Position numbers and translations under genes: made by a program. Positions 676-40,328 of a DNA stretch of 64,000 nucleotides are shown piece after piece (position 1 is the stretch's first letter; each line of letters begins with the position of its first letter). The DNA comes from Escherichia phage PHB12: the sequence record MK524178.1, one strand, 5' to 3'. Under the pieces are notes generated by a model. It did no database searches and was not told the origin of the DNA. It saw only the letters and a list, made by a program, of their open reading frames with translations.

Positions 676-2931
676 TTAAAGCTTACAAGCAGAACAATCT
701 TCAGCTTTAGGTGTTTCTAATTCGTAGTCATCTGTACCTGACCCGTCGCGAGTGTTATGATAGTAGAGATTTTTTCCGCCAAAGTACCAGAAGTAAAGCA
801 GATCGTCAAGCATTACTGACATTGGCACTTTACCTTTCTCAAATACTGCAGGGTCATAGTAAGTATTAGCAGAAGCAGATTGGCATACCCATTTCAACAT
901 GATAGCAACTTGGGTCAAATAAGGTTTATTACCTTTCTTAGCAAGTTTCCACGCGTAGTCGTAAAGACCCATGTTATGTTCTATATTAGGAACAACCTGA
1001 CGGAAGTTGCCTTCTTTAGATTCTTTAATACTTACTGGGCCGCGTGGGGGCTCAATCCCGTTTGTAGAGTTTGATACTTGACTGCTTGACTCACAAGGCA
1101 TGAGTGCAGACAACGTTGAGTTACGAATTCCGTGTTCTTTGAGTTCAGCTCGAAGTTCTTCCCAGTCACAGACGTAGTTCGGGGCTGCAATTTGGTCAAT
1201 CTTTTTATTGTACCAGTCGATAGGTAATTCGCCTCTAGACCATTTAGTGTCTGAATAATACTCGCAACATCCTTTTTCTTTGGCGAGTTTGATTGAAGCT
1301 TTGATAAGGCCATATTGCAATCTCTCAAACAATTCATGAGTCAAATCGTTAGCGTCTTCATATGAAGCAAAGTTAGAAGCTAACCATGCAGCATAGTTCG
1401 TCACACCGACACCGAGATTTCGTCGCTTTTTAGCTTTTAAAGCTTCTGGAACCGGATAATCTTGATAGTCTAACAGGTTATCAAGTGCACGTACTTGTAC
1501 TTCAGCAAGTTCATTAATTTTATCTTGGTCTTGCCAATCAAATTTATCTAATACAAAAGCAGATAACGTGCATAAACCAATTTCAGCATCAGGACCATTC
1601 ACATCATTAGTTGGAATAGCGATTTCACAACATAAGTTACTCTGACGAATTGGAGCTTTTTCACGAATAAACGGAGTGTAGTTATTCGTGTTATCAACAA
1701 ACTGTGGATAAATTCGAGCAGTACCAGAACGTTCAGTCATGAACAATTCAAAGAGTTCTAGTGCTTTGATTCTTTTCTTTCTGATTGTTGGGTCTTTTTC
1801 AGCTTTCTCATAAAGCTCACGGAATTTATCTTGATCTTCAAAGAATGAGTAATATAGTTCGCCTGACATTTCGTGAGGGCTAAATAAAGTAATATAATCA
1901 TTTTTACCAAGGCGTTCCATCATAAGGTCATTAATCTGAATTCCGTAGTCCATATGTCGAATACGGTTTTCATCCACACCTTTGTTATTTTTCAGAACTA
2001 ATAGGTTCTCTACTTCTAAGTGCCACATCGGATAATACGCTGTAGCAGCACCACCACGAATACCGCCTTGAGAACAAGATTTTACTGCGGTTTGGAAATG
2101 TTTCCAGAATGGAATAACACCTGTATGTCGAACTTCACCCGTACCGATCTTAGAACCTTCTGCACGAAGCATACCAACGTTGATACCGATACCAGCTCGT
2201 TTAGAAATATATTCAATAATTGATGCTGAAGTTTTGTTAATAGATTTTAACGAATCACCGGCTTCAATAACTACACAACTAGAGAACTGGCGAGTTGGAG
2301 TACGAGCACCTGCCATAATTGGGGTTGGCAATGAAACTTGATGAGTAGAAACGGCATCATAAAAACGAATAATATGTTTCAAACGGTCATGAGTTTCGTC
2401 TTGGTGTAAGGCCATGCCAATAGCCATGATAGCAAACTGTGGAGTTTCATAAATCTTCCCAGTTGTTTTATCTTTAACTAGATATTTTTCTTTAAGCTGC
2501 ATAGCACCAGCATAAGTCAGGTCAAAGTCTCGTTCATGTTTAATCTGTGAATCTAGATAAATGATTTCTTCTGCCGAATATTGAGACAACAGCTCAGGGT
2601 CGTATTTGCCTTCATTAACACAGTAAGAAATATGGTCGATAAAAGCAGGCGGTTCAAACTGCCCATATACATCTTTACGAAGTGCAAACATTAGCCCTTT
2701 GGCAGCGACATACTGATAATCAGGTTCTTCGACAGAAATCAAGTTAGCTGCAACTTTAATACAAATCTTCTGAATATCTTTGGTGCTCATCCCGTCAACA
2801 AGATGGGTCTTAATTTCTTCGTACAATTCATATGGGTCAATTTGTGTTCCTTCACACTGCCAAGTTAAGACTTGAATAATTTTCTGTGCATCAAAATTTT
2901 GGGATACCCCACTGCTCTTAGTTACTTGCAT
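676..2931 (-). CDS. nrdA: Ribonucleotide reductase large subunit (class Ia)
   Basis: 751 aa; N-terminus MQVTKSSGVSQNFDAQKIIQVL and C-terminal CSACKL tail typical of NrdA; T4 synteny (td-nrdA-nrdB); SD AGAGGAC upstream. Confidence 0.95.
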   Translation of the reverse strand: MQVTKSSGVSQNFDAQKIIQVLTWQCEGTQIDPYELYEEIKTHLVDGMSTKDIQKICIKVAANLISVEEPDYQYVAAKGLMFALRKDVYGQFEPPAFIDHISYCVNEGKYDPELLSQYSAEEIIYLDSQIKHERDFDLTYAGAMQLKEKYLVKDKTTGKIYETPQFAIMAIGMALHQDETHDRLKHIIRFYDAVSTHQVSLPTPIMAGARTPTRQFSSCVVIEAGDSLKSINKTSASIIEYISKRAGIGINVGMLRAEGSKIGTGEVRHTGVIPFWKHFQTAVKSCSQGGIRGGAATAYYPMWHLEVENLLVLKNNKGVDENRIRHMDYGIQINDLMMERLGKNDYITLFSPHEMSGELYYSFFEDQDKFRELYEKAEKDPTIRKKRIKALELFELFMTERSGTARIYPQFVDNTNNYTPFIREKAPIRQSNLCCEIAIPTNDVNGPDAEIGLCTLSAFVLDKFDWQDQDKINELAEVQVRALDNLLDYQDYPVPEALKAKKRRNLGVGVTNYAAWLASNFASYEDANDLTHELFERLQYGLIKASIKLAKEKGCCEYYSDTKWSRGELPIDWYNKKIDQIAAPNYVCDWEELRAELKEHGIRNSTLSALMPCESSSQVSNSTNGIEPPRGPVSIKESKEGNFRQVVPNIEHNMGLYDYAWKLAKKGNKPYLTQVAIMLKWVCQSASANTYYDPAVFEKGKVPMSVMLDDLLYFWYFGGKNLYYHNTRDGSGTDDYELETPKAEDCSACKL

Positions 2932-3227
2932 ATGTCCTCTATATTAAATTCATCTTTAAAAAGTTTATTAACCACTAGAGCTATTATATCACCATGACAG
3001 GCTTTTGGTTTACATGTGCATCCTAATCGCATCCCACGTAAAGGTTCAAGATGAGCTTTTGTGATTTCTCCACTTCTAATTCTTTTAATAAAATCCTTTT
3101 TGAAAAGCTCAATAGCTTCTTCTCGAGAAGAGGCATCCTTGCCTACATAATTTCCCCAGAATGTGCCACGATGAATATTAACATCAAAATCTGATTTGTA
3201 TTTATTCACTACGCGGCATATTTTCAT
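2922..3227 (-). CDS. Hypothetical Cys/His-motif protein (nrdA.1 position)
   Basis: 101 aa ORF, 10-bp overlap with nrdA start; motif CTCKPKACHGD; same strand and packing as neighbours. Confidence 0.5.
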   Translation of the reverse strand: MKICRVVNKYKSDFDVNIHRGTFWGNYVGKDASSREEAIELFKKDFIKRIRSGEITKAHLEPLRGMRLGCTCKPKACHGDIIALVVNKLFKDEFNIEDICK

Positions 3228-3693: not shown

Positions 3694-4554
3694 TTATACC
3701 GCCATTTTAGCTTTGATAGTTGGATGAGATTCGTAATTTTTAAGAACGAAATCAGAATGTGTCATCGTTCCAGTAACCCAGTCCATTTGGATTTTTGTAG
3801 GCCAATTCTCAAAATTACTAGGCCAATTAATTTCAAGAGAACATAACTCTTTAGGTTCACGACGAAGAACTTCTTTGCATTGCTCTACATGATTGCTGTA
3901 GATATGCGTATTGCCGCCTGAGAACACTAAATCACCTGGGATAAGGTTACACATCTTCGCTACAATATGCGTCAAGGCAGCGTACGAGGCGATGTTGAAC
4001 GGCAGGCCCAAGAAAACATCTACACTGCGTTGATACCATTGTAAATCAAGATGTCCATTACGCACATTAAATTGATAGAACATATGACAAGGAGGAAGAG
4101 CCATTTGGTCAATTTCGGCAGGGTTCCATGCAGAAACTATTTGTCGACGATCATTAGGAAGAGCTTTAATACGGTCGATAGTTTTGACCAATTGGTCTAC
4201 ACCACCAAAATCACGCCATTGCTTACCATAAATAGGACCAAGTTCGCCGCTATGATATCCAAGGTCTTTTGCCTGATTTTCGTAGTTATCGTCCCAAATA
4301 GTTTTACCTTGAATAAGACTACCATGAGTACGAATACGCAAATCATTAACATTGGTAGAACCAGACATGAACCATAATAGCTCTGCAATACAAGCTTTCC
4401 ATGCTAATTTCTTAGTTGTTACTGCAGGAAATCCTTTAGTAAGGTCCCATCGCAATTTAGTTCCGAATAGAGCAATAGTGCCGGTACCTGTACGGTCGTC
4501 TGTTTCGTAGCCATTTTCTAAGATATCTTTAATCAAATCTTGATATTGTTTCAT
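3694..4554 (-). CDS. td: Thymidylate synthase (uninterrupted, no intron)
   Basis: 286 aa; MKQYQDLIKDILENGYETDDRTGTGTIALFG and catalytic PPCH motif; the same length as T4 TS as I recall it, in one continuous ORF. Confidence 0.95.
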   Translation of the reverse strand: MKQYQDLIKDILENGYETDDRTGTGTIALFGTKLRWDLTKGFPAVTTKKLAWKACIAELLWFMSGSTNVNDLRIRTHGSLIQGKTIWDDNYENQAKDLGYHSGELGPIYGKQWRDFGGVDQLVKTIDRIKALPNDRRQIVSAWNPAEIDQMALPPCHMFYQFNVRNGHLDLQWYQRSVDVFLGLPFNIASYAALTHIVAKMCNLIPGDLVFSGGNTHIYSNHVEQCKEVLRREPKELCSLEINWPSNFENWPTKIQMDWVTGTMTHSDFVLKNYESHPTIKAKMAV

Positions 4555-33034: not shown

Positions 33035-33052
33035 AAGCTCCCGAAGGAGCTT
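33035..33052 (-). terminator. UUCG-tetraloop hairpin overlapping gene 39 stop codon
   Basis: AAGCUCC-UUCG-GGAGCUU on minus strand followed by CAUUUUAAUUU. Confidence 0.5.
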
Positions 33053-34868
33053 AGGACATCCATTCTTTACGAAGTTCTGAATCATCACCCAACAACATTT
33101 CAAAGAGTTCTTTCCAATTTTCAGGAAGTTTAACTACGTCGTACACAGGGTTTTGAATCATTTCACGATATTCTGACTTTTCAAGGGAGCCCAATCCCTT
33201 GATGTATCGAATACTATGCTTAGGCAGTGTATCTTTAGCTTCTTCATACTCAGCTACAGTATAAAACCATTTTTGAGTTTTGCCAATTTGTGCAATAATT
33301 ACAGGCGTTTTAACAAAGCGAATACGTCCTTGTTCAAACAATTCAGGCCAATTACTAAAGAAAGCAAGCAAAGCCGGATAAATACTTCCAAGACCGTCAT
33401 GATCGGCATCGGTCATAATTGCAATATTACGATAGTTCGTATTCTCTGCCTTTTCACCAAGAATAAGACCTGTGATAGCACAGATATCAAAGAGCTCTTT
33501 GTTCTTCATCATATCAGCATATGACATACCCCAGCTATTCATTACCTTACCACGTAATGGGAACCCGCCGTGTAGTTCACGGTCACGAACATCAATGAGA
33601 TAACCAATTGCCGAATCACCTTCTGTTAAAAACAATGTCGTATCTGCATCTTTACCACATTGGTTAGCTTTAATATGCTTATGAACCTTAGCTTTAGTTG
33701 CCTTTTTAGCTGCTTTAGTTTCTGCAGCCTTTTCTGCTGCCAATTTACGAGCTAATGCTGCTTCAACAATAGGCATAATCAAGGCTTCGTTTTTAAGAAG
33801 TGCCTGAGCAATTTTCTTAGTATCTAATTGGATATGATTACGAATATCACCATACGTTGACGTTAAACGTTCTTTAGTCTGAGAATCAAAACGCATGTTG
33901 CTCATGTCTCTAATAAACATCAACATTGTGAGACATTCTTTAACACGAGCTTTAGTGACTTCAATACCCTTATATTTCTTTTTAATACCAGGCAAAAGAT
34001 GTTCGCAGATATCATCCATTACACATTCAACGTGATGACCGCCATTTTTAGTATGGATGTTATTCACATAAGTTAAATGTCGGAAGCCATCTGGTGATGT
34101 TGTGAATGCTATAGAGACTTTATCATTTTCTTGAATGATGTTATCTTCGCCAAATTGTTTAGCAAATCGTTTAAAATTACCATCAACCTTTTTACCATTA
34201 AATGTGAACTTGATATCAGGATAAACGACTGCCAATGTTTGAAGTCGGTCTAAAGTAATATCTAAATAAATTTGAGATAAATTATGCTCTTCAAATGAAG
34301 AGAAATCAGGAGTGAAGATTACTTTAGTGCCTTTACCTTTAGATTTCTTAGAAGACCATGATTTGTTTTCCATTCCGTTTGAACAGTTAACAGTGATTTC
34401 ATTTTCGCCATCTGACGTGATGCCTGTAAACAACGTAGAGAAGATATTAGTTAAACTACTCCCGACGCCGTTCATACCACCAGTCTTACGTTCAGAGTCA
34501 TCGCCAAAGTTACCACCAGCCTTTGGAATAGTCCAGGCTGCTACAGGCCCAGGAATTTGTTCACCTGTTTGGTCGGTAACTAAACCTTGAGGAATACCAC
34601 GCCCGTTATCTTCCACCGAAACTTGATTATTTTTAATTTGCACATCAATTTTATTTGCAAACTTAAATGATGTACGAATAGCTTCATCAACCGAGTTGTC
34701 AATAATCTCATCGATTAATTTAACCAGACCAGGAACATATTCAACTTGTTGATATTTACCAAACAAAAAACGCTCGTGGGCTTCTTTGGCCGAAGAACCA
34801 ATATACATGCCACTACGTTTCTTAATATGTTCTACATCTGACAATACCTTAATTTCATTTTTAATCAT
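33051..34868 (-). CDS. 39: DNA topoisomerase II large subunit (uninterrupted gene 39; no separate gene 60)
   Basis: 605 aa; GyrB-like ATPase and Toprim motifs; single ORF as in T2-type phages rather than T4 split 39/60. Confidence 0.95.
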   Translation of the reverse strand: MIKNEIKVLSDVEHIKKRSGMYIGSSAKEAHERFLFGKYQQVEYVPGLVKLIDEIIDNSVDEAIRTSFKFANKIDVQIKNNQVSVEDNGRGIPQGLVTDQTGEQIPGPVAAWTIPKAGGNFGDDSERKTGGMNGVGSSLTNIFSTLFTGITSDGENEITVNCSNGMENKSWSSKKSKGKGTKVIFTPDFSSFEEHNLSQIYLDITLDRLQTLAVVYPDIKFTFNGKKVDGNFKRFAKQFGEDNIIQENDKVSIAFTTSPDGFRHLTYVNNIHTKNGGHHVECVMDDICEHLLPGIKKKYKGIEVTKARVKECLTMLMFIRDMSNMRFDSQTKERLTSTYGDIRNHIQLDTKKIAQALLKNEALIMPIVEAALARKLAAEKAAETKAAKKATKAKVHKHIKANQCGKDADTTLFLTEGDSAIGYLIDVRDRELHGGFPLRGKVMNSWGMSYADMMKNKELFDICAITGLILGEKAENTNYRNIAIMTDADHDGLGSIYPALLAFFSNWPELFEQGRIRFVKTPVIIAQIGKTQKWFYTVAEYEEAKDTLPKHSIRYIKGLGSLEKSEYREMIQNPVYDVVKLPENWKELFEMLLGDDSELRKEWMS

Positions 34869-34917: not shown

Positions 34918-34933
34918 AAGGGCCGAAGCCCTT
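34918..34933 (-). terminator. UUCG-tetraloop hairpin terminator (AAGGGC-UUCG-GCCCUU then UUUUUG)
   Basis: Overlaps the stop codon of ORF 34932-35357; U-run follows on minus strand. Confidence 0.55.
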
Positions 34934-35357
34934 ATTTAAATTTAATTTTCTGAAGTGCATCAATTGCAGCCAAACGCCCTTGTTCACTTTTAACTGTAAT
35001 GACCACATCACCTGATACGATCACCGAACCATCAACAAATTCTACAGAGCCTTTTTTGAAATCGACAGATGTATCTGGTTCCGGAACTTCTTCAAAGAAT
35101 TTAAATTCTGCACCATAAAGCAGAATATCACCTTGCATACTATGAATAGTTCGGCCATAATCGCCTACGGCTTCTACGGCAATAACCGAAACGCCGTAAC
35201 CAATCATCTCTTCCACAATAAAATCTTTGGACAATAAAGTAGTATGCAGATTAGTATTAAGACGTTTACCAGTCGTATTAAGAATTCTCAAGAAATTATC
35301 TTCCTGTCCTTTGATAATACGATATTTCTTACCAACTTCAAAACCTTTAAAAGCCAT
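34932..35357 (-). CDS. Hypothetical protein (T4 goF position)
   Basis: 141 aa ORF immediately upstream of gene 39. Confidence 0.4.
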   Translation of the reverse strand: MAFKGFEVGKKYRIIKGQEDNFLRILNTTGKRLNTNLHTTLLSKDFIVEEMIGYGVSVIAVEAVGDYGRTIHSMQGDILLYGAEFKFFEEVPEPDTSVDFKKGSVEFVDGSVIVSGDVVITVKSEQGRLAAIDALQKIKFK

Positions 35358-35541: not shown

Positions 35542-35952
35542 TTATTCCTTAAAATGTGCTTTCAACATTTGATACAAAGACCATGCCTGGTCGTTATTTT
35601 CGATAGTAATCGTCATCACCGGAAATTCAGACAATTCGCCAAGTTCACCAGAATCTTGCTCTTCGGACGCTTGATATGGATTTCCCACTTCATCAAAAAA
35701 CTCTGCTTCACTAGTAGAGAGCCAGATAAAGTTTTCATCAAGGATATCACCGCCTGTTGCGTATCCAACCGTGCCAGTAGATGTCACAATTTTAGTAGGA
35801 CGACCAAGATGGTCAACATCTAATACTTTAAATGGTTCCATGCCAAGACGTCGTGCATAAATCCCATTATCAGTGTGGTTTTTAATAAACTCTTTTTGGG
35901 TACGTTTATCTTTAAATTGGTACCATGAGTTAACGCGGAATTTATTAGCCAT
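35542..35952 (-). CDS. Hypothetical protein
   Basis: Start taken at internal ATG ([10 protein letters not shown]...) giving ATGA coupling with upstream ORF. Confidence 0.45.
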
Positions 35953-36179
35953 TAGTAAGTTTCCTTCCAATAAGTTGTACCGTTTTCAGTGATTTCACGG
36001 AAGATACCATAGATAGGCATTTCGTCACCGAGTTTTTCGTAAACGTAAACCACTTCGGTGTAGCATAAAAATTCGGTCCAGTTTTTCTGTACAACAACTA
36101 AATCAGGATTAAACAGAACATCTTCAAACTCATCGATGTTTGAATCAGTAGTTACGTTTTTAATGATTTGACGTTTCAT
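35952..36179 (-). CDS. Hypothetical protein
   Basis: 75 aa from ATG 36179 preceded by SD GAGGAGAA. Confidence 0.4.
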
Positions 36180-36236: not shown

Positions 36237-36761
36237 TCATTTTAGCAAAATAAAATCAACTTGTTCTGCCAATGAACGTCTAAACATTAATTGACAACTT
36301 CCGAGGATGAAATCAGGTGCTTCATAGACCGCGATGTAGTATCCTTTAGCTTTCAAGAGTTCAACATCCACCTGGTCATCAAACCATGCATAAACCGCGT
36401 CAACACTTTCAAATCCAAAATAGAACCCTTGGGCCCAATCTTCACTCAATTCAAATGTGTGCTCAATTCTATAGTATCTTAAGATATTTTGTTCAAGGAG
36501 TTTGTCTTCATTTACTGTAGGACGATTAGGGACATTATAGTTGTCACCGTGATGGTAGAAGTTACCTGAGATTATTCCATGTTTATCAAGGAACTCCCAT
36601 GTTTCTTCAGAGTTGTCGGTGCCCGACCAACCGTATGGTGAACGAGGTTCTTTATTCCAAGAGGTTTCCCAAATTCTGACGGCTTTACCGTCTTCGATAG
36701 CAATTCCTGGTAATGATTCACGTTGAGTACAAAAACTACGTTCTACACGATAAACTAACAT
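36237..36761 (-). CDS. Hypothetical protein
   Basis: 174 aa from ATG 36761 (MLVYRVERSF...) preceded by SD GAGGAGAA and an early promoter. Confidence 0.45.
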   Translation of the reverse strand: MLVYRVERSFCTQRESLPGIAIEDGKAVRIWETSWNKEPRSPYGWSGTDNSEETWEFLDKHGIISGNFYHHGDNYNVPNRPTVNEDKLLEQNILRYYRIEHTFELSEDWAQGFYFGFESVDAVYAWFDDQVDVELLKAKGYYIAVYEAPDFILGSCQLMFRRSLAEQVDFILLK

Positions 36762-36787
36762 ATTATTCTCCTCTGGTTGATATGGGT

Positions 36788-36816
36788 ATAATATCAAAAC
36801 CAGAGGAGAAGTAAAC
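36788..36816 (-). promoter_or_regulatory. Early promoter
   Basis: Minus-strand GTTTAC, 17 bp, TATTAT, upstream of ORF 36237-36761. Confidence 0.6.
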
Positions 36817-36820
36817 AACT

Positions 36821-37240
36821 TTATGCGAAAGCAGCTGGGGTATATTTTTTAATTTGGAATTCAGGAACTACCATGAACTGACCAGCGAAAACGATGTTAT
36901 AAAGCTTAACACCATCTTCAACCCATTGGTCGCTGATAAATCCGGCGATTTGCTTAGTTTTCCACGGTGTTCCATCAGTTGCCGCAGCAATAGTGAATTC
37001 ATGGTCTTTTTCAACAGAAACTGATCTGCATAGTCCCCATTTGAACGCTTTTTCTTCTGGTTCAATGAATTGGCTTGAGACGTAGCCAATATTACCATTA
37101 GCATCACGAACTTTAACTTGGTTACGACCAAAAACCGGATCACTCACAGAAAGAACTTCAACCAACTTCCCGGCAACTTTAGAGCGAGAAGCAACAGATA
37201 CATATACGTAATCACCTGTAGAGAGATTTACAATATTCAT
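36821..37240 (-). CDS. Paralog family member 1 (DQWVEDG C-terminal motif)
   Basis: 139 aa; shares N-terminal SRSKVAGKLVEV and C-terminal GFISDQWVEDGVKLYNIVF with the next ORF. Confidence 0.5.
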   Translation of the reverse strand: MNIVNLSTGDYVYVSVASRSKVAGKLVEVLSVSDPVFGRNQVKVRDANGNIGYVSSQFIEPEEKAFKWGLCRSVSVEKDHEFTIAAATDGTPWKTKQIAGFISDQWVEDGVKLYNIVFAGQFMVVPEFQIKKYTPAAFA

Positions 37241-37249
37241 AATAATTCC

Positions 37250-37705
37250 TTAAGCTTTACGAGGAGACACATAGCGAGTGATTTCAGATTCTTTAACAAC
37301 TCGGAAGTCACCTAAGAATACGATATTGTATAACTTTTCACCATCTTCAACCCATTGGTCACTAATGAAGCCACACATAGTATCAGTTTTGCTTGGATAA
37401 CCGTATTCATCGATGAAGTCAAATTCTTTATCAGTCTGGAATTCAACGCCTTTGCAAAGGGCCCATTTGAACTGTACATTAGGTTCAGTGGAAGCAAAAT
37501 GAGCGCTCACAGGAGTTTCCAAGAATTTAGGACTTACGTAAGCGTACTGAGTATCCTGACGTCCAAAACTAGGAATGATTCGAACTTTAACTTCTTTAAT
37601 ACGTCCCATGCCATTTGTGCGAAGTCCGATAACTTCAACCAGACGACCTGCGGCTTTAGACCGGGATGCAATTGATACACGCTTAATTTCACCAATAGTA
37701 ATCAT
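37250..37705 (-). CDS. Paralog family member 2
   Basis: 151 aa; SRSKAAGRLVEV ... GFISDQWVEDGEKLYNIVF. Confidence 0.5.
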   Translation of the reverse strand: MITIGEIKRVSIASRSKAAGRLVEVIGLRTNGMGRIKEVKVRIIPSFGRQDTQYAYVSPKFLETPVSAHFASTEPNVQFKWALCKGVEFQTDKEFDFIDEYGYPSKTDTMCGFISDQWVEDGEKLYNIVFLGDFRVVKESEITRYVSPRKA

Positions 37706-37766
37706 AATTTCTCTCTCTTTGTTAAATTGAATTCACTATACTCCATCCGTCCTTGGATGTACAACA

Positions 37767-38261
37767 TTAATTAAGGATATTAACCACAGCACTACGTGGA
37801 ACTACACTAAAATCACTTGAGTGAACAACGTTCAGAAGTTCAACACCGTCTTCAATCCATTGGTCAGTTACCCATCCATTTACTGGACCAGCGAATGGGC
37901 GTCGAATTGAAACATATTTACACAATAAATCAGTAGGCTCAATAGGCTTAATCAGAGTACCGTACATACAAGCGATATCCATATCAATACAGATGTCTTT
38001 AACGGGTTCTACTTCTTCAATCAACAGTTCAAAGTCGGTGCTTGGGATGGCAGTAGTAGAAATTGTACCGTATGAATTTTTAATTTCTAAGAATAACCAA
38101 GGGCCTTCAGCTTGTTTAATGAAGTTAACAATAGTGAAACTATTACCTTGAGTGGCACCTAAAATTTCACAAAACTTTTCATAAGCTCGCACTGAAGCAC
38201 CGTACCAGTTGATTTGTTTTTCGTCTTTCAGGATGTAAGTAGCCGTAGTATTGATATTCAT
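37767..38261 (-). CDS. Paralog family member 3 (more divergent)
   Basis: 164 aa; C-terminal GWVTDQWIEDGVELLNVV aligned with members 1 and 2. Confidence 0.5.
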   Translation of the reverse strand: MNINTTATYILKDEKQINWYGASVRAYEKFCEILGATQGNSFTIVNFIKQAEGPWLFLEIKNSYGTISTTAIPSTDFELLIEEVEPVKDICIDMDIACMYGTLIKPIEPTDLLCKYVSIRRPFAGPVNGWVTDQWIEDGVELLNVVHSSDFSVVPRSAVVNILN

Positions 38262-38327
38262 AATGTTTTTCCTGTTTGGTTAAGATAGAAAGATTATACT
38301 CCAACCATCCTTGGTTGTAAACTGGTT

Positions 38328-39005
38328 TTATCGCTGTTTTACACTTAACGGGTCAGGATTCTCAGGGACATCTTCAAGGCCAAGCGCATAACGCTGAGCA
38401 TATTTTAACATCAAAATATCTTTAGCACAATCATGAATACTATCATGGGCAACGAATCCTTTTAACGTACCCATCGGTAATGGACACATACTTAATCCTC
38501 GTGTCAACGAGTAAGCTTCGATTGCCGTACGAATATCGCGTTGAGCCCAGAATTTAACTGGTTCTAAGTTATCAGTATCGATCTCTGGTTCAAGAACACC
38601 TTCATCACGATAGAGGTCACGAATCAAATCGACCAAGATCGGGAAGTCAAAGCTCATACCACGGCACCACATCTGTGATTTCCATTGGTCGACTTTATTA
38701 GCTCGGCAATAGTCTAAAAAGATTTTAATACCTTCAAGCGTAGTGACATCGTCTTCAGACGGAGCCAAGTTTTTACGTGCTTCAGCCGATTGTTCTTTCC
38801 ACCATTTCATAGTGGATTTAGCGAAAACTCGCTTCCCTTTCTGAGAAGCTAAATTAAATTTAATTCGCTTACCTCGTTGAACAAGTTCTTCAAATGATTC
38901 AACAACTTCAGGGTCGGAATTATATGCAATAACCGCAAGGTCAATAACAGCCGCTTTTGATGTATTGCCGAATGTTTCAAAATCTATAATAACATCAGTG
39001 CTCAT
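38328..39005 (-). CDS. dexA: Exonuclease A
   Basis: 225 aa; MSTDVIIDFETFGNTSKAAVIDLAVIAYN (DEDD-like); T4 synteny upstream of dda. Confidence 0.9.
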   Translation of the reverse strand: MSTDVIIDFETFGNTSKAAVIDLAVIAYNSDPEVVESFEELVQRGKRIKFNLASQKGKRVFAKSTMKWWKEQSAEARKNLAPSEDDVTTLEGIKIFLDYCRANKVDQWKSQMWCRGMSFDFPILVDLIRDLYRDEGVLEPEIDTDNLEPVKFWAQRDIRTAIEAYSLTRGLSMCPLPMGTLKGFVAHDSIHDCAKDILMLKYAQRYALGLEDVPENPDPLSVKQR

Positions 39006-39014
39006 AATTTTCTC

Positions 39015-40328
39015 TCAAATAAAATGGACGTCAAAACGACCACGAGTTGTACCGACATACAATAACTGTTTAGCTAATTCTGAATCGGCATAATGGATAC
39101 ACGGTGTATAAACAAAGGCCGTGTCAACAGACATACCCTGGGCCTTATGGAAGGTTGATACTGGTAGTGCCTTCACCTTAGTGAACATACGTTTAGCATC
39201 CCAGAATTCGCTCCATGGAGCTTTACCACCTTTATTCCAAAATTTGTATGTTTCTGCGGTCTTAGCCAAAAACAAATTGAATTTATAAAGCTCTTCTTCA
39301 GAAGAAATAACCTTTATATCTTCGCGGATGTATTCTTCATCATCCCCATATGTTTCTACTGTAAGATTCCAGTATCGTATCATATATTCGCCTGAAACAC
39401 CACGTGCTTTAACGAATGTAGACGTTTCTACAGCATCTCGAATACGAACGAATTGGCCGTTATTGAAAAGCATTTCGGTCATATTTTTACCATCTAGCTT
39501 ATATGTCTTAGTAAATGGCTCTTGTAGAACAATGACTTCGTCTTTAATAAATGGTTTTTCTGTTTCAAGAAGTTTTCGTCGAATAATTGAATTTAACTTG
39601 TCCACTGACTTATTTGTGAATGCCATCATTCGATTTTCGAAAAGGTCTTCAGGAGTTTTAACGACGTTAAAATAGTTCATCATATACGATTTAAGGTCTG
39701 TATATCCGTGAACACCGTGCCCATCAACTACTTTATCGTAAATCCATTTGCCATTACGAATATCAGTCGCAACATCAATAATTGGTGCATTGCTACGTTT
39801 AACTTCTGTAAGGTTGCATTGCACGAAGTCTTTGTGAGTGAAGAAAGGACTTAGATACGCAGTTGATTCGCCTGGGTCTACCGGACGAATCTGGCATCGG
39901 TCACCGATTCCAATTACTGTACACCATTTAGGGATACTAGCTAACATTATTTTAAACAGAGAACGGTCGCACATTGACGCTTCATCAAATAACAGTACAC
40001 GGCACAAGGCTAAGTCGGGGACCTTTTTCTGTTCAAACAATACGTTTTCTTCGTATGTAGTTGGGTTGATTTTAAGAATGCTATGAATAGTCGATGCTTC
40101 TTGACCAGCAAGTTTGCTTAGAACCTTTTTAGCAGCATGTGTAGGGGCTGCTAAAATAATACCTGATTCTCCAGAAGAAATAAGGGCTTCAACGATGAAT
40201 CTAGTAAGGGTTGTTTTACCTGTACCAGCAGGCCCATTAATAGTTACGTGATGTTTCTTTTCTTTAATAGCGTTCATAACAACGTTGAAGGCGTTTTTCT
40301 GGCCTTCAGTCAAATCATCAAATGTCAT
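39015..40328 (-). CDS. dda: Dda DNA helicase (SF1B)
   Basis: 437 aa; Walker A GPAGTGKTT; T4 Dda-like length and start MTFDDLTEGQKNAFNVV. Confidence 0.95.
   Translation of the reverse strand: MTFDDLTEGQKNAFNVVMNAIKEKKHHVTINGPAGTGKTTLTRFIVEALISSGESGIILAAPTHAAKKVLSKLAGQEASTIHSILKINPTTYEENVLFEQKKVPDLALCRVLLFDEASMCDRSLFKIMLASIPKWCTVIGIGDRCQIRPVDPGESTAYLSPFFTHKDFVQCNLTEVKRSNAPIIDVATDIRNGKWIYDKVVDGHGVHGYTDLKSYMMNYFNVVKTPEDLFENRMMAFTNKSVDKLNSIIRRKLLETEKPFIKDEVIVLQEPFTKTYKLDGKNMTEMLFNNGQFVRIRDAVETSTFVKARGVSGEYMIRYWNLTVETYGDDEEYIREDIKVISSEEELYKFNLFLAKTAETYKFWNKGGKAPWSEFWDAKRMFTKVKALPVSTFHKAQGMSVDTAFVYTPCIHYADSELAKQLLYVGTTRGRFDVHFI

Follow-up and report, generated by a model that had tools for sequence, protein, structure and literature searches.

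Three consecutive minus-strand genes of Escherichia phage PHB12 (sequence record MK524178.1), within the 64,000-nucleotide (nt) stretch analysed here (the window), are members of the motB/motB.1 family known from phage T4. The window DNA is that of a Mosigvirus, an RB69-like T-even phage, with 97.7% identity to phage SF and 96-98% identity to Mosigvirus genomes including SF, PhAPEC2 and JS09. Quite probably, the three are MotB/MotB.1 family early genes of Mosigvirus that encode two-barrel proteins, with DNA contacted by the N-terminal domain and the shared C-terminal domain acting as a protein module. A sequence-only reading of the window had identified three open reading frames (ORFs) of 139, 151 and 164 amino acids (aa) as tandem paralogues; their coordinates proved exact and the motif strings quoted for them are all present. 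As a discovery this is little, as a 2021 publication already covered the family, its shared C-terminal domain, its origin by duplication and its copy number in RB69, and the arrangement in the window is the RB69 arrangement already described (Patterson-West et al. 2021); the observation is correct but a rediscovery. The three genes are:

37767..38261, minus strand: full-length motB.1 orthologue, 164 aa (identity to T4 MotB.1, phrog_2333, PF17613, AlphaFold2 (AF2) model)
37250..37705, minus strand: MotB orthologue, 151 aa (identity to T4 MotB, PF17613, phrog_1671, AF2 model)
36821..37240, minus strand: motB′, second MotB paralogue, 139 aa (identity to the 151-aa protein, PF17613, phrog_1671)

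Three genes of one family

The similarity of the three genes is real and far beyond chance. By BLASTP, the 139- and 151-aa proteins give a full-length alignment with 44% identity (145 columns, expectation (E) value 6e-34), and both align with the 164-aa protein at the C-terminus only, with 52% identity over 29 residues (E=7e-10) and 42% over 36 residues (E=3e-9), respectively. All three exceed the curated gathering score of 25 bits for PF17613 (motB): the 139-aa protein scores 75.9 bits, the 151-aa protein 126 and the 164-aa protein 32.1, the match to the last being confined to residues 84-159. A hidden Markov model (HMM) of the C-terminal block, searched against a six-frame translation of the 64-kb window, found exactly three copies (E 2e-33 to 3e-26) and no fourth, the next best match having an E of 1.4. 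Chance similarity is ruled out by the BLASTP, PF17613 and HMM values, and the ORFs do not belong to three unrelated families, as all three fall within PF17613. At the DNA level, the C-terminal block is apparent as a 92-nt direct repeat, with further copies at 37281-37372 and 37786-37877 that have 72% and 61% identity, respectively, to the reference copy:

36852..36943, minus strand: 92-nt C-terminal-motif DNA block, copy 1 of 3 (repeat search)

The C-terminal block common to all three proteins reads G(F/W)(I/V)(S/T)DQW(V/I)EDG and is part of a longer D-Q-W-x-E-x-G...L-x-N-x-V motif, also present in all three. The columns of this motif are invariant in 33 aligned MotB and 32 aligned MotB.1 sequences, and the invariant residues of both alignments are concentrated within it. 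The second block noted in the sequence-only reading, an N-terminal SRSK.AG.LVEV sequence in the 139- and 151-aa proteins, is likewise confirmed. In its extended form, VS..SRSK.AG.LVEV, it marks a KOW-like N-terminal barrel that is present in both these proteins and absent from the 164-aa protein, which is therefore not MotB proper. The PHROG assignments divide the proteins in the same way. The 139- and 151-aa proteins belong to phrog_1671 ("MotB-like transcriptional regulator"; E=6e-51 and 9e-64, respectively) and match phrog_2333 only through their C-terminal 32-35 residues; the 164-aa protein belongs to phrog_2333 (E=6e-81) and matches phrog_1671 secondarily, through its C-terminus.

Comparisons with T4 identify the individual genes. 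The 151-aa protein has 48% identity to T4 MotB (155 columns, E=9e-42) and 92% identity to RB69 MotB and, as in T4 MotB, a KOW-like N-terminal domain is followed by a DQWVEDG C-terminal domain, the N-terminal half is basic and the gene is located between dexA and cef. This architecture recurs in the 139-aa protein, which has 37% identity to T4 MotB (E=8e-25) but has lost most of the basic charge (isoelectric point (pI) 6.6 versus 9.2 for T4 MotB) and has a shorter linker. The window therefore has two MotB genes in tandem whereas T4 has one. Both these smaller genes carry MotB-like annotation in the records of SF and related Mosigviruses; the 139-aa gene is annotated 'MotB-like transcriptional regulator' in phage SF and has RB69p010 as its RB69 counterpart. 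The 164-aa protein has 38% identity to T4 MotB.1 over 134 aa (E=3e-26), the similarity covering the N-terminal domain, probably LSm/SH3-like, and extending into the first part of the C-terminal domain. As documented below, the reference T4 protein stops within its DQWI motif whereas the window protein has the whole C-terminal barrel.

Domain organization and charge

The AF2 models predict two small β-barrel domains per protein, separated by a flexible linker. In the model of the 151-aa protein (mean predicted local distance difference test (pLDDT) score 83.8), there are two all-β domains with strands at residues 7-57 and 86-145, corresponding to a KOW-like N-terminal barrel (1-62), a disordered linker (66-75) and a C-terminal barrel (~86-145). 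The N-terminal domain modelled for the 164-aa protein (mean pLDDT 79.3) has five strands and two helices within residues 8-83, appears LSm/SH3-like, and is followed by a low-confidence linker and then a C-terminal barrel at ~116-163. An LSm-like fold has been reported for the N-terminal domain of MotB.1, and also in GoF and Frd.2 (Kim et al. 2025, PMC12152347). MotB′ (139 aa) shares the two-domain layout of the 151-aa protein, with a shorter linker and an N-terminal domain that is much less basic.

The domains differ in charge. MotB (151 aa) has a pI of 8.5, with a charge of +8 in the N-terminal domain (pI 11) and -2 in the C-terminal domain. The corresponding charges are +1 and 0 in MotB′ (139 aa; overall pI as given above), and -5 and -4 in MotB.1 (164 aa; pI 4.5). 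The basic charge expected of a DNA binder is thus confined to the N-terminal domain of MotB, which bears on which domain binds DNA, and the common C-terminal domain is acidic or neutral.

Searches of the PDB with the single proteins and with family profiles returned no significant match to a solved structure; matches to a FYN-binding SH3 domain (E=0.024) and to staphylokinase (E=0.13) were taken as chance. By the same sequence and profile searches, there is no detectable relationship to KOW, Tudor, chromo-barrel or LSm barrels, such as those of NusG, the Spt5 KOW domains and the tandem Tudor domains of 53BP1. A search of BFVD gave convincing scores for T-even relatives of MotB and MotB.1 only.

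At least four N-terminal architectures are found together with the family C-terminal domain across T-even phages. Proteins with the MotB.1-type C-terminal domain have one LSm-like domain (143-169 aa), other modules (~180 aa, and ~250 aa with two inserted barrels) or, in a form found in Klebsiella phages, a KOW N-terminal domain. In the longer MotB.1-type forms, a short DMDIACMYGTLIKP motif precedes the inserted domain or domains, either close to the N-terminus or behind an additional N-terminal domain; in the window, the 164-aa protein has this motif in its linker.

Predicted functions

T4 MotB is an abundant early host-takeover protein that binds modified and unmodified double-stranded DNA without sequence specificity (~100 nM), purifies together with both H-NS and StpA, is toxic when overproduced and, when present, doubles the burst size (PMC6070864, PMC7827196). 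Further effects of T4 MotB are a changed H-NS footprint and de-repression of some of the H-NS regulon (PMC7827196). T4 MotB and MotB.1 have a common C-terminal domain and differing N-terminal domains, and one of the two genes may derive from the other by duplication (Patterson-West et al. 2021, PMC7827196).

By orthology with T4 MotB, the 151-aa protein would be an abundant early protein that coats DNA non-specifically, shifts H-NS and so contributes to host takeover. Its basic N-terminal KOW barrel would make the DNA contact, as judged from charge, and the role of the conserved C-terminal barrel, which is acidic or neutral, would be that of a protein-protein module common to the paralogues, for self-association, spreading or binding of a common partner. 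This division, with DNA contact at the N-terminus and a shared protein-level function at the C-terminus, is proposed because the basic charge sits in the N-terminal domain of MotB. One C-terminal function could then be combined with varied ligands at the N-terminus: DNA in the case of MotB, perhaps RNA in that of MotB.1, and a weaker or altered ligand in that of MotB′. The domain layout and charge distribution of these proteins, their homology, the purifying selection on them and their phyletic distribution were observed; all their biochemical activities are inferred.

Several points weigh against this assignment of functions. Every biochemical result on the family comes from T4 and none from a Mosigvirus copy, and net charge alone is compatible with DNA binding by the C-terminal domain. 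The paralogues may also be conditionally dispensable, because deletion of T4 motB.1 has no laboratory phenotype, with wild-type burst size (PMC12152347), and Mosigvirus G2285 lacks motB.1. Most directly, HHpred places the C-terminal domain of T4 MotB in the cold-shock/OB-fold class (b.40.4.5), with eIF5A as the closest match, and such a domain could itself bind DNA (Patterson-West et al. 2021, PMC7827196). Were this so, all three proteins would be DNA or RNA binders through the shared OB-fold, and the N-terminal domains would only modulate the binding. Conservation within the family is highest in the C-terminal domain, and the barrels in the AF2 models are five-stranded, both consistent with this alternative. 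With the domain acidic or neutral in all three proteins, we consider it unlikely, but it is the strongest of the alternatives.

N-terminal DNA contact with a C-terminal protein module is the preferred explanation. An elaboration of it, in which the C-terminal barrel would be a scaffold for hetero-oligomerization of MotB, MotB′ and MotB.1, or for a target common to them, with nucleoid and H-NS remodelling tuned by N-terminal swaps, is speculative and, as a whole, rather improbable.

Selection and variation

The sequence-only reading had linked the paralogues to host interaction or anti-defence under diversifying selection. A role in host interaction is plausible, because T4 MotB is a DNA-binding host-takeover protein that alters H-NS binding, but there is no evidence for anti-defence, and no defence system is known as a target of MotB. 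A PADLOC search gave no match although, as its library contains defence rather than anti-defence proteins, this negative says little.

Ratios of non-synonymous to synonymous substitution rates (dN/dS) were calculated pairwise, by the Nei-Gojobori method, for orthologues from 8-13 related phage loci; a scan of IMG/VR gave only 3 loci and the orthologues were hence taken from GenBank phage records. The median dN/dS values are 0.13 for motB.1, 0.23 for motB and 0.14 for motB′, as compared with 0.09, 0.05, 0.02 and 0.15 for the neighbouring motB.2, dexA, cef and goF, respectively. For the three genes, the gene-wide pairwise maximum is 0.40 and the medians for gene regions range from 0.06 to 0.23; single pairs reach 0.82 in the N-terminal domain of MotB, and no value for close orthologues, gene-wide or by domain, exceeds 1. 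The three genes are therefore evolving faster than dexA, yet are under clear purifying selection, and diversifying selection is unsupported at this pairwise resolution. motB.1 is intact and of constant length in 8 of 8 genomes, and motB′ in all 13 compared. MotB is the most variable of the three, with mosaic alleles and a linker that differs by insertions, but this pattern resembles allelic recombination, not point-wise positive selection.

An expansion of paralogous host-interaction or anti-defence genes under diversifying selection would be in keeping with their location, within an early region that is dispensable and contains many host-takeover genes (PMC6070864), with the differences between phages in copy number and N-terminal modules, and with the mosaic MotB alleles. 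Given the low dN/dS values and the resemblance of the variation to allele recombination, such an expansion is very unlikely.

The motB.1 genes of the T4 and RB69 reference records

The 119-aa MotB.1 in the T4 reference records (NC_000866 / AF158101) ends with "...DQWIGRWR", inside the DQW motif, and the remainder of the C-terminal domain, EDGVELLNVVHAGEYSVVPRSAVVAILN, is encoded in the +1 frame. The T4 reference has one extra G, with ATTGGAAGAT where re-sequenced T4 and the window have ATTGAAGAT. The extra G lies in the region at positions 3722-3820, minus strand, of the locus extracted from T4 NC_000866, to be compared with 37770-37880 of the window. Thirteen other records, 11 from T4 strains (including T4T, KJ477684-6 and MT984581) plus RB55 and RB59, have an intact 143-aa MotB.1, and two reading frames are needed only in the two T4 reference records. 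The truncation of T4 MotB.1 is thus probably a sequencing error or annotation artefact, and the 119-aa (13.8 kDa) MotB.1 to which recent modelling and pull-down work refers is probably also an artefact, because the one-base frameshift is confined to the reference records. Full-length MotB.1, as encoded in the window, carries the whole of the MotB C-terminal barrel.

In the RB69 reference record (NC_004928; positions 3877-4373 of the extracted locus), motB.1 is similarly disrupted, extending over three reading frames so that there is a 132-aa ORF and, directly downstream, a 29-aa ORF, RB69p012, that encodes the displaced tail of the C-terminal domain. Patterson-West et al. (2021; PMC7827196) reported, for RB69, a 29-aa peptide with a match to the C-terminal domain core; their "Category 3" peptide presumably corresponds to RB69p012. 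The RB69 locus (RB69p010-p013) otherwise resembles that of the window, a phage of the same genus, with the same gene order and 92-98% protein identity; in the window and in other Mosigviruses, motB.1 is a single intact 164-aa gene.

Distribution and history

With the 139-aa protein as query, tblastn identified MotB-family matches in 777 phage records, ~207 of which have at least 80% identity and so correspond to motB′ itself. Several phages are reported to have more than one copy, with two motB and one motB.1 in RB69 (PMC7827196). Copy number does vary, as the published RB69 state, the single motB of T4 and the absence of motB.1 from G2285 document. In G2285, motB directly follows dexA (positions 2070-2136 of the extracted locus), and the 164-aa gene is therefore dispensable within the genus Mosigvirus.

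In a neighbour-joining tree of MotB proteins rooted on the proteins of Klebsiella phages, the motB′ clade is the sister to all canonical MotB, with bootstrap values of 100% for motB′ and 85% for all other MotB. With motB′ branching outside canonical MotB, the motB duplication is therefore old. Local duplication and divergence, as envisaged in the sequence-only reading, thus holds in that the genes are paralogues that arose by duplication and diverged, but the duplication is neither recent nor local, and the pair is present also in some Tequatrovirus. T4 either lost motB′ or never received it.

In the Tequatrovirus RB5 and GiZh, a motB with 81.5% identity to that of the window is followed by a motB′ with 88.5% identity, and the flanking motB.1 and motB.2 are T4-like, with only 48% and 36% identity, respectively, to their window counterparts. 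The motB-motB′ pair in these phages points to modular exchange between genera. The mosaic region of GiZh and RB5 spans positions 1094-3020 of the extracted locus. The MotB of phage phiC120 has a T4-type N-terminal domain and an RB69-type C-terminal domain (positions 2064-2591 of the extracted locus), which suggests that recombination also occurs within, as well as between, genes of the motB region. That the paralogues are under purifying selection and have been exchanged between genera argues that each copy is functional. That motB′ and motB.1 are redundant duplicates without functions of their own, drifting to loss, as the G2285 genome, the split motB.1 of the RB69 reference record, the absence of motB′ from T4 and the wild-type burst size of the T4 motB.1 deletion might be taken to indicate, is the least probable explanation and hardly credible, as both genes are intact, constant in length and under purifying selection in the genomes compared, motB′ is an old lineage kept in ~200 phage records, and the T4 truncation is confined to the reference record, where it probably reflects an error of sequencing.

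Beyond these genera, the family C-terminal domain appears restricted to T4-like phages. Its profile, searched against 1.84 billion representative proteins, matched 28 clusters, every named one of which is from a T4-like phage, and this search returned no distant homologue that would give a clue to function.

Gene order, expression signals and neighbouring genes

In the direction of transcription, the window genes are ordered dda, dexA, motB.1 (164 aa), motB (151 aa), motB′ (139 aa), motB.2, cef and goF. RB69 and phage SF have the same order, with their copies annotated motB.1, motB and MotB-like. The order in T4 is dda, dexA.2, dexA.1, dexA, motB.2, motB.1, motB, cef and goF, so that motB.2 follows motB′ in the window, whereas it precedes motB.1 in T4. 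The three genes are therefore downstream of dexA on the coding strand, and not upstream as had been proposed from the sequence alone. Their placement in the T4 motB/dexA.1/dexA.2 region was right in regard to motB, but the genes are motB.1, motB and an extra motB, and dexA.1 and dexA.2 are absent. Instead, dda adjoins dexA directly (at 39005-39015), unlike in T4.

The early dexA-cef interval houses both MotB-type genes, and consensus matches identify two promoter-like sites, one upstream of the 164-aa and one upstream of the 151-aa gene:

38293..38321, minus strand: T4-early-type promoter-like site upstream of the 164-aa gene, TTTACA-N17-TATAAT with 11 of 12 positions matching (consensus scan)
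37735..37763, minus strand: weaker promoter-like site, TGTACA-N17-TATAGT, upstream of the 151-aa gene (consensus scan)

The 44-nt blocks that cover these sites, 38276-38319 and 37718-37761, respectively, are 73% identical, and in T4 the equivalent position upstream of motB is occupied by a GTTTACA...TATAAT site. Between the stop codon of the 151-aa gene and the start of the 139-aa gene there are 9 nt, and the latter gene is provided with an AAGGA ribosome-binding site of its own; because of this 9-nt spacing, the two genes are probably co-transcribed.

The gene that follows motB′ encodes an orthologue of MotB.2 that is not a paralogue of the three genes:

36237..36761, minus strand: MotB.2 orthologue, 174 aa, non-paralogous neighbour (identity to T4 MotB.2)

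A 193-aa version of this ORF (36237-36818), with 34% identity to T4 MotB.2 (E=4e-15), begins at a TTG, and initiation at the ATG gives the 174-aa protein. The ATG is the true start, because a stop codon interrupts the TTG-started upstream extension in related phages, and motB.2 is annotated as a 525-nt gene in SF and RB69. The 193-aa ORF was considered as a possible fourth paralogue and rejected, as it is the MotB.2 orthologue and has no match to the C-terminal HMM.

Two small early ORFs are located further downstream, at 34932-35357 and 35542-35970, namely a 141-aa ORF at the position of 39.1 and an orthologue of GoF. The GoF orthologue has 72% identity to T4 GoF, a member of the published LSm-like fold family that also includes the N-terminal domain of MotB.1, and the 141-aa ORF has a weak similarity to GoF (E=0.24). 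Gene 39 (33051-34868) encodes a single 605-aa topoisomerase subunit in the window, and a 516-aa protein in T4.

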